64,000 bases of DNA from Thermodesulfobacteriota bacterium (GTDB lineage Bacteria > Desulfobacterota > Desulfarculia > JACQYL01), in NCBI GenBank assembly GCA_963675595.2, contig CAXXLZ010000001.1, positions 704,001 through 768,000 on the forward strand, given 5' to 3'. The notes beneath the pieces are model-generated. The model ran no database searches. It was given only the letters and a program-made list of their open reading frames with translations, and was not told the DNA's origin. Shown here piece after piece: positions 53,840 through 57,647 of this stretch (the stretch's first letter is position 1; every line of letters begins with the position of its first letter). A program made the position numbers and the translations under genes.

Positions 53840-53868
53840 TTGACCGTGAGGACCCCAATCCTTATTGT
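53840..53868 (+). promoter_or_regulatory. Putative sigma70 promoter of the rhodanese selenoprotein
   Basis: TTGACC-N17-TATTGT. Confidence 0.45.
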
Positions 53869-53938
53869 ACAAAATATTGTTCGGTTCGAGGTGAATACCT
53901 CGAAGTTTTTCAACTTTTAGTAGGGAGGTAACGCGTCT

Positions 53939-55300
53939 ATGGTTTCCTCATTCAGGAGGACCGGCCTTGCGCTCGTCGCGGTCGGGATTTTTTTCGGGTT
54001 CGGGCTCGGGGCCGTGCCGGCCAAAGCGGAACAGAACCTGCTTCTTAACGCCAAGTGCCTGAAATGCCATACGGAATTCAAGGAAATGAAGAACGTCATG
54101 GCAGGCGATTTCGAGAGCCGATCGAACAAGGCCATGTCGATCCAGGTGGATGTGGGTGAGCAATCCCAACTGGTCAAGTTCACCCCGGAGACCGAAGTGG
54201 TCCATGCGGAAAGCATCAAGGCTCTCAAAAAACCCATTCCTGTTCTGATCGAGTTTGAGCCGCGCGGTGAGGACCTCATAGCCACCAAAATCACGGCGAA
54301 ACCGGTGATCAAGGTTCCGGAAAATGAACAAGTGAGTGTGGAGGAAGTGGCCGCGCTTCCGACGAGATCTCCGAATTCTTACTTGCTGGTGGACTCCAGA
54401 CCGCCCATCCGTTACCAAGAGGGGCACATCCAGTCGGCGATCAGCATTCCTTTCCCAAAAATGCCTGAAATGATGGACAAACTTCCGCAGGACAAAGATC
54501 GGCTCGTGGTATTTTATTGCGGAGGATTCAGGTGAGTGCTTTCTCCCATGGCCGCCAGGTTGGCGGAAAAAAACGGGTACACCAATGTAAAGGTTTTCCA
54601 TGCCGGTATGCCTGCTTGGAGACAAGCGGGAAAGCCGGTCATAACGACTCGGAAATTCGTGAGCGATTTGTTGGGCTACATCGTGCTGATCGACACCAGG
54701 GGCGTTGAGGCCGCAAAGGCCGGGCACATCCAAGGTGCCGTCGCCATAGCGGCGAATGAGATCGTCGGTGAACGGGAACAATTTCCGGTGGATGCAAAAG
54801 CTCAGATCGTCCTTTACGGCGAACAGACCAACCTCGAAGAACTGGCCCCCATTGTGAAGGCGATCAGTAGTTGGGGGTACGGCAACGTATCGATTCTGGA
54901 CGGCGGGTATGAGGGCTGGCTTGCCGCCGACGGACCCATCCAGAAGGACATGGTGAGAACCAAGATCGTCTACTTCCCGCGCCCCCACCCCGGCGAGATC
55001 AGCGGGGACGAGTTTATGAACATTGTACGGAATCAACCCGAAGGCAAACAGATTCTCGATGTCAGAACTCAGGCCGAAACCGCGGGAGGCATGCTTCCGG
55101 GAGCCGTCAACATCCCGGTGGATCAGCTTCAGGCCCGTCTTAACGAGCTTCCCAAGGACAAAGAGATCATCCTCCATTGTCGTTCCGGGCTTCGGGCGGA
55201 AATGGGCTACAATATTCTGAGGAATGCCAAGTTTAAAGCCAGATTTCTGAATGATAAGGTGGAAATCCTGGAAAATCGTATCTTTTGTTGCTTCAAGTAA
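53939..55300 (+). CDS. Secreted monoheme c-type cytochrome / triple-rhodanese selenoprotein (453 aa, Sec199 at TGA 54533-54535)
   Basis: ORFs 53939..54535 and 54536..55300 are contiguous and in frame. The TGA falls inside a rhodanese domain at FYCGGFR-U-VLSP. Signal peptide, CLKCH, downstream SECIS-like hairpin. Confidence 0.85.
54536..54570 (+). promoter_or_regulatory. Bacterial SECIS-like hairpin
   Basis: CCGCCA-GGT-TGGCGG (54552-54566), G-containing apical loop 23 nt after the UGA. Confidence 0.65.
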
Positions 55301-55346
55301 CGGAACATGAGTGACGAGTTCCACGCGTTGGGGATTCGTCGGTCCT

Positions 55347-55384
55347 GCGCAAGGGGAGTCTTTGACTTCCCTTGCGCTTTTTTG
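55347..55384 (+). terminator. Intrinsic terminator after the selenoprotein gene
   Basis: GCGCAAGGGGAGTC-TTT-GACTTCCCTTGCGC followed by T7. Confidence 0.85.
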
Positions 55385-55614
55385 GGCACCGAAAAGCAAC
55401 GCCGTCCCGAGGACGGAATCATGTGTTGAAGCGTTTCATTGGATTCAAACCCGGACGACACCCGGTTGACGGGAAAAAAGAATTGATCTAAGGGCGAACA
55501 TAGGGGTACATCAATTGCTCGTATACCGGGAAGGCCCGGACGCGATGCCCGTTTCGGGAATATCCGGTTTCTATGGTGAGATAAGGCGTCTTTCGCAGCG
55601 ATGAGGAGAGCAGC

Positions 55615-56466
55615 ATGTGGGAATATACGGATAAGGTCAGAAAATACTTCGAATCACCCGTGAACGTGGGAGAAATCGAAAATCCGGACGGTGTGGGTGA
55701 GGTGGGCTCCATCGCGTGTGGGGACGCGCTCAAACTCACGTTCAAGTTGGGAGCGGACGGCAGGATCTCCGATGCCAAGTTCAAGACCTTCGGGTGTGCC
55801 AGCGCTATTGCGTCGTCGTCGGCTCTTACGGAAATGATCAAGGGAATGACCCTGGACGAAGCCGAGAAGGTCACCAACAAAGACATTGTGGACTATTTAG
55901 GGGGGCTTCCCAAAGAAAAGATGCATTGCTCGGTCATGGGCATGGAGGCTCTTCAGGCCGCCCTGGCCAATTACCGCGGAGAAGAAGTCAAAAAGGAAGA
56001 AGGGGAAATCGTCTGTAAGTGCTTCGGCATTACGGACCGGGAAATCGAGCGGGTGATCCGTGAGAACCACCTGACCACCAGAGAGGAAGTCACCAACTAC
56101 ACCAAGGCCGGCGGAGGGTGTGAGTCCTGCCACGACAAGATTCAGGAAATCGTGGACAGAGTGGTTGCGGAGGAAAAAGGAAAGAAGATCGAACTCAGAG
56201 CGGTGGAGAAGAAGGCCGGGAAGTTGACCAACCTTCAGAAGATCAAGCTCATCGAAGAAACCCTGGAACGCGAGATTAAACCCGCATTGCGCACCGACGG
56301 CGGGGACATCGAACTTATCGACGTCCAGGGGGACCGGGTTTTGGTGGCTCTTCGCGGCACTTGTTCATCTTGTGCTGCGGCCGAGGTGACCCTGAAGGGG
56401 TACGTCGAGTCCAAGCTGCGGGAGTTCGTAACCGATGAGCTGGTGGTCGAGGAGGTGAAGTCATGA
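55615..56466 (+). CDS. nifU: Fe-S cluster assembly protein NifU
   Basis: IscU-like N-domain (ACGD, FGCASA, KMHCS), BFD-like CKC...GCESC, Nfu domain DGGD...CSSC. Confidence 0.95.
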   Translation: MWEYTDKVRKYFESPVNVGEIENPDGVGEVGSIACGDALKLTFKLGADGRISDAKFKTFGCASAIASSSALTEMIKGMTLDEAEKVTNKDIVDYLGGLPKEKMHCSVMGMEALQAALANYRGEEVKKEEGEIVCKCFGITDREIERVIRENHLTTREEVTNYTKAGGGCESCHDKIQEIVDRVVAEEKGKKIELRAVEKKAGKLTNLQKIKLIEETLEREIKPALRTDGGDIELIDVQGDRVLVALRGTCSSCAAAEVTLKGYVESKLREFVTDELVVEEVKS

Positions 56467-57647
56467 ACCCGGTCTACATGGACAACAATGCCACGACCAG
56501 GACGGCTCCGGAAGTGGTCGAGACCATGCTTCCATACTTCACGGAGCTGTACGGGAATCCCTCGAGTATGCATTACTTCGGCGGACAGGTGGAAAAGGCC
56601 GTGAGAGGGGCGAGGGAAAAGATTGCGGCCTTGATCGGCGCCGACCCGGGTGAAATCGTGTTCACATCCTGCGGCACCGAAAGCGACAATACGGCCGTCT
56701 TGGGGACGTTGGAGTCCTATCCTGAAAAGCGGCACGTGGTCACCACTCGCGTTGAACACCCGGCGGTCAGGAACGTGGGGCATCATCTCCAGAAAAAAGG
56801 ATATCAGGTCACTGAATTGTCCGTGGATCGCGGGGGGGCGTTGGACCTCCGCCGGCTGGAGCAGGCAGTGACCTCGGACACCGCGGTTGTCAGCATCATG
56901 TGGGCCAACAATGAGACGGGCGTGGTTTTTCCCATCGAGGAAGCCGCGGCCATTGCCAAGTCCAAGGGTGCGGTCTTCCATACGGACGCGGTGCAGGCCG
57001 TGGGAAAGATCCCCATCGACCTCTCAAAATTGAGGGACGTGGACCTGTTGTCCCTTTCGGGCCACAAGCTGCACGCGCCCAAAGGGATCGGCGTGTTGTA
57101 CGTGCGCAAAGGAACCCGTTTGTCACCCTATATCATCGGTGGACACCAGGAAGGGGGACGCAGGGGCGGCACTGAAAACGTGCCTTACATCATCGGCTTG
57201 GGGAAGGCGGCGGAGCTGGCCGGGACGAGAATGGATGATGAGAATACGCGTGTGCGAGCCCTCCGGGACAAACTGGAAAAGGGCCTCATGGAGCGGATTC
57301 CCAACTCGATTCTCAATGGAGAAGGACAGGTCCGGCTTCCCAACACCTCCAACGTCAGCTTTGAATATGTGGAAGGTGAATCGATCCTGCTGCTCATGAG
57401 CAATCTGGGAATCTGTGCCTCATCGGGTTCGGCTTGCACGTCCGGCTCGCTGGAGCCCTCTCATGTTCTCAGAGCCATGGGGGTTCCTTTCACGGCCGCC
57501 CACGGCTCCATCCGGTTCTCTTTGAGCTATTACAACACGGAAGACGAAGTAGACTACGTCCTCGATCATCTTCCGGGAATCATTGAGAAGTTGCGGGACA
57601 TTTCTCCCTTCTGGTCGGACTACGTTCGGCAAAGCGTTGCCCGGTAG
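56463..57647 (+). CDS. nifS: Cysteine desulfurase NifS
   Basis: DNNATT, FTSCGTES, HTDAVQ, SGHKLH, SSGSACTS. Confidence 0.96.
   Translation: MNPVYMDNNATTRTAPEVVETMLPYFTELYGNPSSMHYFGGQVEKAVRGAREKIAALIGADPGEIVFTSCGTESDNTAVLGTLESYPEKRHVVTTRVEHPAVRNVGHHLQKKGYQVTELSVDRGGALDLRRLEQAVTSDTAVVSIMWANNETGVVFPIEEAAAIAKSKGAVFHTDAVQAVGKIPIDLSKLRDVDLLSLSGHKLHAPKGIGVLYVRKGTRLSPYIIGGHQEGGRRGGTENVPYIIGLGKAAELAGTRMDDENTRVRALRDKLEKGLMERIPNSILNGEGQVRLPNTSNVSFEYVEGESILLLMSNLGICASSGSACTSGSLEPSHVLRAMGVPFTAAHGSIRFSLSYYNTEDEVDYVLDHLPGIIEKLRDISPFWSDYVRQSVAR

Follow-up and report, generated by a model that had tools for sequence, protein, structure and literature searches.

An exported rhodanese-type selenoprotein with a candidate haem c motif, probably encoded across an in-frame UGA, in a Thermodesulfobacteriota bacterium

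Introduction

A review already catalogues both the general class of rhodanese-type selenoproteins and the [C/U]-x4-U loop of TsoB, which it lists as 'rhodanese-like form 5, UxxxxU' (PMC13188914). TsoB carries DsbD membrane and thioredoxin domains in addition to its exported rhodanese domain, in which two selenocysteine (Sec) residues are found in the active-site loop. In the LYCAU type (NF041203, 'form 3, CxU') the rhodanese domain likewise holds a Cys and a Sec in this loop, at C-x-U spacing and in a single domain of ~126 aa with no haem motif, and in form 1 (UxxS, WP_010941598.1) the Sec is followed by x-x-Ser. Sud of Wolinella (PDB 1qxn) is a periplasmic rhodanese which carries sulfane sulfur to a respiratory reductase. 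In the ext cluster of Geobacter (PMC6148476, PMC5877670, PMC13510729), the rhodanese-like lipoprotein ExtH is encoded together with MccSep/ExtKL, ExtM, ExtN, ExtO (Rieske) and ExtP (cytochrome b), a cluster that pairs an exported ~49 kDa rhodanese-like protein with multihaem cytochromes, Rieske/cytochrome b components and a Sec-dependent chalcogen reductase. In Geobacter, deletion of extI leaves selenite and tellurite reduction impaired (PMC6148476, PMC5877670), and recent work has shown the selenoprotein of the cluster, MccSep, to act as a polysulfide reductase (PMC13510729).

The locus described here lies in a stretch of 64,000 nucleotides from a Thermodesulfobacteriota genome, hereafter the window, and consists of two open reading frames which are almost certainly a single gene with an internal UGA encoding selenocysteine. 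The same genome encodes, elsewhere, its own TsoB (942.7 bits for NF045694, with two TGA codons), whose rhodanese domain, the nearest relative known, is 41% identical to the first rhodanese domain of the window protein over 98 residues (E 3e-19), in the same register. Both are exported rhodaneses with two redox residues four apart, in the loops FYUAGLTUVRS of TsoB and FYCGGFRUVLS of the window protein. The two Sec residues of TsoB align with C194 and U199, so that U199 corresponds to the second Sec, the first position being a Cys here. The window protein lacks the DsbD and thioredoxin domains of TsoB and has in their place a CxxCH motif, two additional rhodanese domains and a DUF5666-like barrel; it scores 79.6 bits against NF045694 (cut-off 805), through the rhodanese domain only, and thus falls outside the TsoB family. 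It also falls outside NF041203 (68.3 bits, cut-off 115), from which it differs by its C-x4-U spacing. Form 1, whose domain architecture the reviews do not set out, is comparable by motif only, U-V-L-S standing here for its UxxS, and Sud, a single-domain protein with no Sec, haem motif or second redox residue, weakly matches the third rhodanese domain (29.5 bits). ExtH, described as a lipoprotein without Sec or haem, can be compared by description only, and unlike ExtH the window gene has no ext-type neighbours. In NCBIfam, no Ext family matched the window protein or six relatives, and no model covers the whole protein; a haem-less lipoprotein relative (L050), considered as a possible link to ExtH, showed no cytochrome or porin neighbours in 19 kb and no NCBIfam Ext match. 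Literature searches returned no description or characterisation of an architecture combining CxxCH, barrel and three rhodanese domains, in agreement with the initial annotation, which had not recognised the combination as characterised.

Results

The first open reading frame extends from 53939 to 54535 (+) and closes on the TGA at 54533-54535. The second runs in the same frame from a directly adjoining GTG at 54536 to a TAA at 55298-55300, and translation through the TGA joins both into a protein of 453 residues. We estimate a probability of about 85% that 53939-55300 is a single gene whose product is an exported, 453-residue selenoprotein. The features of the locus, all on the + strand, are the following.

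53840..53868, +, weak sigma-70-like promoter candidate TTGACC-17-TATTGT (consensus scan only, 9/12 matches)
53923..53928, +, Shine-Dalgarno GGGAGG, 10 nt upstream of the ATG (read off the sequence)
53939..55300, +, probably one coding sequence, 453 codons and a TAA, in which UGA199 is read as selenocysteine (open reading frames, Pfam, homologue alignments)
53939..54028, +, Sec-type signal peptide, residues ~1-30, probable cleavage AKA/EQ (judged by eye)
54056..54070, +, CLKCH, candidate haem c motif (C40, C43, H44; nearly invariant in the family)
54086..54313, +, small beta-barrel akin to DUF5666/CusF, residues ~50-125 (profile search)
54332..54652, +, rhodanese domain 1, loop C194-G-G-F-R-U199 (Pfam; alignment with TsoB)
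54533..54535, +, predicted UGA selenocysteine codon, U199 (TGA/Cys column in homologues, Sec machinery)
54552..54566, +, bSECIS-type hairpin CCGCCA-GGU-UGGCGG (conservation and covariation in homologues)
54653..54973, +, rhodanese domain 2, LYGEQT in place of a catalytic Cys (Pfam; no active-site Cys in alignments)
54995..55258, +, rhodanese domain 3, canonical loop C414-R-S-G-L-R, Cys414 at 55178-80 (Pfam; alignment)
55286..55291, +, C-terminal Cys-Cys of the CCFK tail (conservation confined to the close clade L053-L089)
55347..55383, +, intrinsic terminator, 14-bp stem and T-run (found in the window)

Coordinates and frame, when re-read, agreed with the initial annotation that the two listed open reading frames form one frame across the TGA, and that this codon cuts a rhodanese active-site loop (VVFYCGGFR-TGA-VLSPMAA), the Pfam Rhodanese match at residues 147-229 spanning residue 199. 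The accompanying remark that the second frame has no ribosome-binding site was inexact, because a Shine-Dalgarno-like GGAGGA (54521-54526) sits 9 nt before the GTG, although the continuity of the frame stands. These six nucleotides are two Gly codons and are not retained in homologues whose loop reads CQGFR or CEGFR. In the same window, nifU and proS end on TGA as an ordinary stop. The gene stands alone in the source genome, with its own candidate promoter and terminator. In contigs of two other studies, X3 and X4, which extend over the whole stretch, there are 34 and 49 differences, and contigs from an RNA library (X11) cover 54347-54640; contigs as such cannot show expression, and these are given no weight either way.

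Within rhodanese 1, residue 199 belongs to the active-site loop, five residues past Cys194. A sample of the phylum comprising 401 genomes gave 36 with a match, from which 30 loci were fetched, and the corresponding codon is TGA in 24/30 and Cys in 6/30. Likewise, among loci on named genome contigs it is TGA in 67/79 and Cys in 12/79, and alignment of full-length database homologues placed a Cys at this position in 12 of the 13, a Ser in one (P0005) and a Trp in none. Accordingly, the comparison suggested in the initial annotation yields Cys or TGA throughout the loci, with Ser as the exception in a single database protein. The conserved TGA is spread over two phyla, Thermodesulfobacteriota and Nitrospirota, and the TGA form is carried by the cultured Desulfocarbo indianensis (L063) and Thermodesulfovibrio sp. 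N1 (L129). A sequencing error, against which a check had also been advised, is excluded because the identical TGA recurs in dozens of independent genomes. The in-frame UGA thus stands opposite Cys in homologues, the Cys/Sec pairing expected of bacterial selenoprotein genes. Among the 120 database matches listed, 106 are C-terminal pieces of 250-258 aa, and the first frame alone retrieved from the ESM Atlas only clusters of ~197-199 aa with a Rhodanese match, at scores of 0.80-0.81 that lie below the level of more than a lead; these clusters seem to be members of this family truncated at the TGA.

Downstream of the TGA, at a distance of 17-31 nt, the strands CCGCCA (54552-54557) and TGGCGG (54561-54566) enclose the loop GGT (54558-54560). 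The hairpin is found where the initial annotation had placed it, and it accompanies TGA forms only: in the phylum-sample loci a GC-rich hairpin of -8.0 to -16.2 kcal/mol is present in 24/24 TGA forms, and an equivalent is absent from 6/6 Cys forms. Pair 21/33 covaries (CG 18, UA 3, GC 2, UG 1), loop G26 is invariant in the TGA forms, and standard pairs occupy 86.3% of cells, compared with 22-62.5% when the 3' partners are slid; none of 500 shuffles reached the observed covariation score. It is this conservation across homologues that identifies the hairpin as more than chance, since the 76-nt fold of the window sequence itself is no better than that of shuffled sequences (z = -0.20). No Rfam family reached its gathering score anywhere in the window. 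A stem-loop shortly 3' of the UGA with a G in its apical loop, here GGU, is the arrangement of a bSECIS element, and its position within 'AAR.A' codons looks shared with a second paralogue of the genome, in which a C-x4-U loop is fused to an AhpC/TSA-like CSTC domain.

The genome also encodes the components needed for decoding. Each of SelB (404 bits), SelA (621 bits), SelD (386 bits) and tRNA-Sec (77 bits) exceeds its curated cut-off, so that the four genes selA, selB, selC and selD, whose presence had been named as a check, were all recovered; selD itself contains one TGA. Taken with the Cys/TGA column and the covarying hairpin, this machinery supports the selenocysteine reading of the initial annotation, and the prediction that UGA 54533-35 is decoded by SelB and tRNA-Sec under the direction of hairpin 54552-66 is strongly supported by the comparative sequence evidence.

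The remaining architecture that had been described (signal peptide, CLKCH, C-x4-U rhodanese 1, Cys-less rhodanese 2, CRSGLR rhodanese 3 and C-terminal CC) was found in the sequence. The signal is of the AXA type with no lipobox, and the N-termini of homologues are also hydrophobic, mostly without RR. The domain previously noted as beta-rich proved to be DUF5666/CusF-like: proteins built of tandem repeats were retrieved with a profile of the region, and of the 15 that were scanned, 12 match Pfam PF18914 (DUF5666), with additional matches to CusF_Ec, under its cut-off, in many. Pfam PF00581 (Rhodanese) matches the protein in three stretches with 141 bits, above the cut-off of 22.2, and Cys194 and Cys414 occupy the loop positions, which places the protein within this family. 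Across 33 sequences, rhodanese 3 keeps C414 and G417 without exception and R419 almost always. Outside the close clade the C-termini read ...EGC or have no Cys at the end. A PDB sequence search gave generic rhodanese matches only, and nothing for residues 1-125.

A relative is encoded in 498 candidate stretches (one genome per species), distributed over Thermodesulfobacteriota and Nitrospirota, and the hosts of the relatives are sulfur-cycling anaerobes. Among 79 loci of relatives, 23 hold a sigma-54 activator, 14 a cytochrome with at least six CxxCH motifs and eight a YedE-like gene, none of which adjoins the window gene. The relatives include some with a divergent PAS/sigma-54 activator. In L089 and L092, ExtM-like cytochromes occur with a Rieske gene, joined in L092 by a cytochrome b, and these cytochromes adjoin a gene for a Sulf_transp membrane protein, which in L092 has a YedE/FdhT-like score. 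The neighbours of the window gene, ispG, nifU and nifS, were rejected as functional context because 0/79 of the relatives' loci keep them. Sigma-54 control of the window gene was also set aside, no TGGCAY-N5-YTGC (-24/-12) element being found within 500 nt upstream; such an element lies upstream in 19/74 relatives.

Discussion

We hypothesize that the window protein probably acts in the periplasm, its substrate being sulfane sulfur or a selenium species; the relatives' gene neighbourhoods fit a role in sulfur or selenium redox chemistry. Rhodanese 3, with its CRSGLR loop, would take up the chalcogen as a persulfide or perselenide, which the Cys194/Sec199 pair of rhodanese 1 would resolve through a Se-S bond; this bond would then be recycled, with electrons exchanged through a covalent haem c with periplasmic multihaem cytochromes. 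The full sequence of uptake by rhodanese 3, resolution by Cys194/Sec199 and recycling by haem c is a tentative proposal. The initial annotation had suggested a protein coupling a haem c centre to Cys/Sec-based sulfur or selenium transfer; the neighbourhoods of relatives agree with such a role, and both the role and the attachment of haem are kept here as proposals.

The substrate could be selenium and not sulfur, the protein capturing or reducing selenite (or tellurite) in the periplasm and passing selenium on, for example to a YedE-type importer, a possibility that we regard as rather doubtful. Among family models, ExtM, which NCBIfam assigns to a 'selenite/tellurite reduction operon', comes closest to the cytochromes of L089 and L092 (277.7 and 184.7 bits), and the neighbouring membrane protein scores best for the YedE/FdhT 'selenium metabolism membrane protein' (154 bits), but all these values lie under the cut-offs (800 and 350, respectively), and this membrane protein shows a match to TsuA, a thiosulfate transporter, too. 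The Geobacter ext cluster itself points both ways, the extI phenotype towards selenite and tellurite and MccSep towards polysulfide (PMC6148476, PMC5877670, PMC13510729), while the sulfur-cycling hosts speak for sulfur; the present evidence does not discriminate between the two elements.

The nature of the CxxCH motif bears on the source of electrons. C40, C43 and H44 are nearly invariant, and clades in which the spacing becomes CX4CH retain the CH. Keeping the CH in this way is typical of haem c sites, those of cytochrome c3 among them, but not typical of CxxC redox motifs. The protein is predicted to be exported and the genome has cytochrome c assembly genes (PF01578 proteins at 201 and 144 bits), so that a CxxCH in an exported protein and a maturation system, two attributes of c-type cytochromes, are both present; in addition, multihaem cytochromes recur as neighbours of relatives. 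On these grounds we infer that CLKCH may be a site of haem attachment. It is nevertheless conceivable, though improbable, that in this selenoprotein the CxxCH serves the CusF/DUF5666-like barrel as a thiol-disulfide or metal site and would pass electrons or metal to the Cys/Sec loop, a role that would fall to the thioredoxin-type partners in the paralogues. Such a site would suit the adjoining domain, the want of any match to a cytochrome c family or recognisable cytochrome fold in Pfam and NCBIfam, and the homologue alignment, in which no sixth (distal) haem ligand is conserved in the OB-like barrel after CxxCH. It would also suit the paralogous C/U-x4-U rhodaneses, whose fusion partners are either DsbD and thioredoxin or an AhpC/TSA-like CSTC domain, but the almost invariable His after the second Cys argues against it. 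Relatives without the CxxCH (3/30), which likewise fit such a site, still keep the C-x4-C/U loop, and therefore the putative haem is not essential to the rhodanese chemistry.

The last alternative, in which the TGA is a true stop that leaves an exported CxxCH/half-rhodanese protein of 198 aa and a second one, of 254 aa, starting at GTG 54536, or simply a broken gene, is barely credible: gene callers do split the family, as the many C-terminal pieces among the matches listed attest, and the GTG does have its GGAGGA, but the split would fall within a rhodanese domain at the active-site loop, the second product would have no signal peptide, the TGA is kept in most loci over two phyla with Cys in the remainder, the hairpin goes with TGA forms only, the GGAGGA amounts to Gly-Gly codons that homologues with CQGFR or CEGFR lack, and the genome has complete Sec machinery.

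With the selenoprotein reading preferred, the family has consequences for annotation as well as for biochemistry. In public protein sets it appears as two fragments, which no NCBIfam model would rejoin, and therefore the selenoproteomes of sulfate reducers and Nitrospirota are undercounted. In the source genome, the fusions found in TsoB and in the second paralogue show a loop of this kind joined to an electron-delivery module. A redox Cys/Sec rhodanese loop is thus joined, in one genome, to a DsbD-type, a thioredoxin-type or a haem c-motif partner, which suggests that, beyond carrying sulfur, rhodanese domains can serve as reductase modules in the periplasm. The ExtM-like, Rieske/cytochrome b and YedE-like neighbours of relatives tie the family to the question, raised only recently, of how elemental sulfur, polysulfide or selenium oxyanions are respired by anaerobes, and the cultured hosts of the TGA form make it testable. 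A bolder and unlikely extension is that the window protein is the prototype of a new periplasmic chalcogen reductase, in which a single covalent haem on the OB-like barrel would feed electrons from quinol, Rieske/cytochrome b and multihaem cytochromes directly into the Cys-x4-Sec selenenylsulfide of a rhodanese active site. If true, a sulfur carrier would have been turned into a haem-driven persulfide, polysulfide or selenite reductase, and a second, rhodanese-based route would run parallel to the haem-Cys/Sec polysulfide reductase MccSep.

Gene layout and the in-frame TGA

The initial annotation had described the gene as two ORFs split by a TGA in the same frame, an arrangement borne out by the ORF listing and the raw sequence.

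53939..54535 (+): upstream ORF, 198 codons, ending in TGA 54533-54535
54536..55300 (+): downstream ORF, 254 codons, from GTG 54536 to TAA 55298-55300, frame identical to that of the upstream ORF
54521-26 (+): GGAGGA, the two Gly codons, 9 nt ahead of GTG 54536
54552-54566 (+): hairpin CCGCCA-GGT-TGGCGG, 17-31 nt past the TGA
55347-55377 (+): strong terminator 3' of the gene

When the TGA is read through, 53939..55300 translates into a 453-residue protein, P0001, and the codon interrupts the loop VVFYC194GGFR-U199-VLSPMAA; the best of three rhodanese stretches matched by Pfam (residues 147-229) includes residue 199, in agreement with the proposal that the TGA cuts a rhodanese active-site loop. 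The hairpin also lies at the distance originally described, but the statement that the second ORF has no ribosome-binding site was inexact, given the GGAGGA ahead of its GTG. The gene's own ribosome-binding site is GGGAGG, and a weak sigma-70-like promoter candidate was found. An antisense open frame of 483 codons (53948-55399, -) faces the whole gene, with comparable frames in 23 of 79 relatives' loci; it looks like the shadow ORF of a GC-rich gene rather than a gene in its own right.

TGA as a selenocysteine codon

The TGA very probably encodes selenocysteine, as had been proposed, and four independent lines favor this reading: Cys/Sec pairing in proteins, the same pairing in genomes, a conserved hairpin and the presence of the machinery. 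Among the 120 best database matches, 106 are pieces of 250-258 aa starting right past the TGA; the other 14 are full-length proteins. In the alignment of 13 of the latter (P0022 was left out), position 199 is Cys in 12 and Ser in one, P0005. This serine-bearing protein (FYCNGFTSALSP) has close relatives, L033 and L034, with TGA. A search of 401 same-phylum genomes with stops read through gave matches in 36, and in the 30 loci fetched the U199 column holds exactly one TGA in 24 and Cys in 6. Named genome contigs (n=79), a set that overlaps the 30 loci so that the counts are not additive, displayed 67 TGA and 12 Cys; they derive from Desulfarculaceae, Desulfobacteraceae, Desulfatiglandaceae, Desulfobulbaceae/Desulfocapsaceae and Nitrospirota/Thermodesulfovibrionales. 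Apart from the single serine, homologues therefore carry Cys or TGA at this residue.

Downstream of the TGA, 63 nt align without gaps in 24/24 TGA forms, with a stem of 5-7 bp (columns 19-35; -8.0 to -16.2 kcal/mol) and an invariant loop base, G26. Pair 21/33 is CG in 18 forms, UA in 3, GC in 2 and UG in 1; standard pairs occupy 86.3% of cells, a share that falls to 22-62.5% once the 3' partners are shifted along, and none of 500 shuffles reached the observed covariation score. No comparable hairpin was found at the equivalent place in the 6 Cys forms. The argument rests on conservation and not on energy, because the window's own 76 nt fold no better than shuffles (z = -0.20).

All of selA, selB, selC and selD, whose presence the initial annotation had proposed to check, were found in the genome above curated cut-offs (selB 404 bits, selA 621, selD 386, tRNA-Sec 77). 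The selD gene itself carries one in-frame TGA (G000:C2:3335545-3336462, locus L010), and the SelD of this organism is probably a selenoprotein. A reassigned genetic code is ruled out, since nifU and proS in the window end on ordinary TGA stops, and a sequencing error is excluded because the identical TGA occurs in dozens of independent genomes.

Domain organization

Residues 1-30 resemble, as judged by eye, a signal peptide (AKA/EQ). The CLKCH sequence near the N-terminus, presented from the start as a heme motif, is a candidate heme c site: C40-L-K-C43-H44 is nearly invariant in 33 aligned family members and, wherever the N-terminus is covered, in the set of 79 contigs. Thermodesulfovibrio-type members have C-x4-CH, retaining the CH, and the motif is absent in 3 of 30 distant members, one of them a lipoprotein. 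Pfam and NCBIfam scans of P0001 gave no cytochrome family match, and no conserved distal heme ligand was found in the beta domain; we nevertheless consider it improbable that CxxCH is not a heme site. The beta-rich domain noticed initially could be specified further. When residues 36-130 were used as a profile against 1.84 billion representatives, 519 proteins were retrieved at E <= 0.001, some of which repeat the beta part 5-12 times in tandem. Since 12 of the 15 tandem-copy proteins scanned matched Pfam DUF5666 (many also CusF_Ec, below cut-off), the domain is a small DUF5666/CusF-like barrel and not a classical cytochrome c fold.

The rhodanese domains are as originally described: C194-x4-U199 in the first, no Cys at the catalytic position of the second, and a canonical loop, C414-R-S-G-L-R, in the third, with C414 and G417 invariant and R419 nearly so. 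The C-terminal CC is present in the window protein but is not a family trait, the CC[FY]K tail being limited among the 79 contigs to a close clade; Nitrospirota forms lack a terminal Cys, and Cys-type long forms of 559-563 aa (Desulfovibrionaceae, Desulfohalobiaceae) terminate in ...EGC. Taken together, these data establish or strongly support a single exported Sec-containing polypeptide with a CxxCH motif, a beta barrel and three rhodanese domains.

Paralogues and known rhodanese selenoproteins

The same genome encodes a TsoB, a rhodanese/DsbD-fusion selenoprotein (NF045694, 942.7 bits, cut-off 805; G000:C2:2111031-2112740, locus L134), with two TGA and the loop FYUAGLTUVRS, in which a rhodanese is followed by a DsbD membrane domain (DsbD_TM) and thioredoxin. 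Rhodanese 1 of P0001 shares 41% identity with its rhodanese over 98 residues (E 3e-19), C194 aligning with the first Sec and U199 with the second. A further paralogue (G000:C2, locus L136:1363-2403, +), a candidate exported rhodanese selenoprotein, has a C-x4-U loop (IYCRSFRULRS; 38% identity to rhodanese 1, E 1e-15), then an AhpC/TSA-like domain with CSTC, and a GGU-loop hairpin of the same kind at the same offset past the TGA. As read from these sequences, the [C/U]-x4-U loop is joined in this genome to a DsbD/thioredoxin, a thioredoxin-like or, in P0001, a CxxCH partner. Mainly because the paralogous loops are joined to partners of an electron-delivery type, we infer that Cys194/Sec199 is a redox pair requiring re-reduction and not a mere sulfur carrier. 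Two more rhodanese-like matches contain one in-frame TGA each (G000:C2:4140722-4141039 and G000:C1:1450534-1450851); the former lies ~15 kb from an ExtM-like multiheme cytochrome (C2:4155127-4156332), with which it may form an ext-like cluster.

Published surveys list five forms of rhodanese-type selenoprotein: form 1 UxxS, forms 2 and 4 UxxG, form 3 CxU and form 5 TsoB UxxxxU (PMC13188914, PMC9312934). The U-V-L-S of P0001 is compatible with the UxxS label of form 1 (exemplar WP_010941598.1). No NCBIfam model reached its cut-off for P0001 (TsoB 79.6 vs 805; the rhodanese-related LYCAU, NF041203, 68.3 vs 115), and none spanning the whole protein did so for six relatives, among which L129 passed the cut-off of a single-domain model alone, PspE (110.1 vs 102). 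Public annotation splits the gene because no such model covers the whole protein. As the initial annotation had supposed, a selenoprotein combining CxxCH, DUF5666 and three rhodaneses was not found described in the literature searched.

Genomic context

In the window, the gene is flanked by a divergent ispG and, behind its terminator, by a nifU (NifU_N, BFD-like, NifU) and a nifS-like class-V aminotransferase gene (55615-57647, +; overlap ATGA 56463-56466). Neither ispG nor nifU-nifS recurs in any of the 79 relatives' loci surveyed, many of them short contigs, and they were discarded as functional context. The neighbors that do recur in these loci are a divergent PAS/sigma-54-activator/HTH_8 gene (23/79), a cytochrome with at least 6 CxxCH motifs (14/79), a Sulf_transp (YeeE/YedE-type) membrane protein (8/79), a Rieske protein (5/79) and cytochrome b (4/79). 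Of 74 loci, 19 have a TGGCAY-N5-YTGC (-24/-12) element ahead of the gene; none was seen within 500 nt upstream of the window gene. Element and divergent regulator occur together in many close relatives (L058, L060, L064, L065, L069, L072, L073, L080, L083, L084 and others), which suggests that these copies, unlike the one in the window, respond to a signal.

For the L089 and L092 cytochromes, the highest-scoring model is ExtM of the NCBIfam "selenite/tellurite reduction operon" (277.7 and 184.7 bits; cut-off 800, not reached), and for the neighboring membrane protein it is YedE/FdhT (154 bits, below 350), TsuA also matching. This neighborhood resembles the Geobacter extHIJKLMNOPQS cluster, in which a rhodanese-like lipoprotein is encoded together with multiheme cytochromes, the Sec-containing pentaheme MccSep and a Rieske/cytochrome b unit (PMC6148476, PMC5877670). 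MccSep has recently been shown to act as a polysulfide reductase required for sulfur respiration (PMC13510729). Two ExtM-like cytochromes are encoded elsewhere in the organism's genome, which also contains genes for cytochrome c assembly.

In L090-L094, the Cys-type long forms (559-563 aa) carry an extra ~110 C-terminal residues terminating in ...KE[ED]EGC, directly followed by a YedE/TsuA-like membrane protein gene; a 10-heme ExtM-like cytochrome and cytochrome b occur in 4 of these 5 (L091 is a short contig) and a Rieske protein in L092 and L093. In the Desulfarculus-related L067:7592-11981 and L070:8238-11978, the gene is followed by two 8-9-heme cytochromes, the L067 pair being weakly similar to the hydrazine dehydrogenase/HAO octaheme family, with scores (98 and 79 bits) well short of the cut-off.

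Proposed role

We favor, with a probability of about 0.6, a role for P0001 in the redox transfer of sulfur or selenium in the periplasm; the results do not discriminate between the two substrates. A specific scheme is much more tentative: heme c would be attached at C40/C43, rhodanese 3 would be loaded with sulfane sulfur, or with selenium, in persulfide form, this would be resolved by Cys194/Sec199 via a selenenylsulfide, and the heme would exchange electrons with periplasmic multiheme cytochromes. The P0001 family represents a new architecture within the known class of rhodanese selenoproteins, and is widespread and systematically mis-annotated. It would connect ext-like electron-transfer clusters with a heme motif and a Cys/Sec loop in a rhodanese, a link that is of interest, albeit hypothetical.
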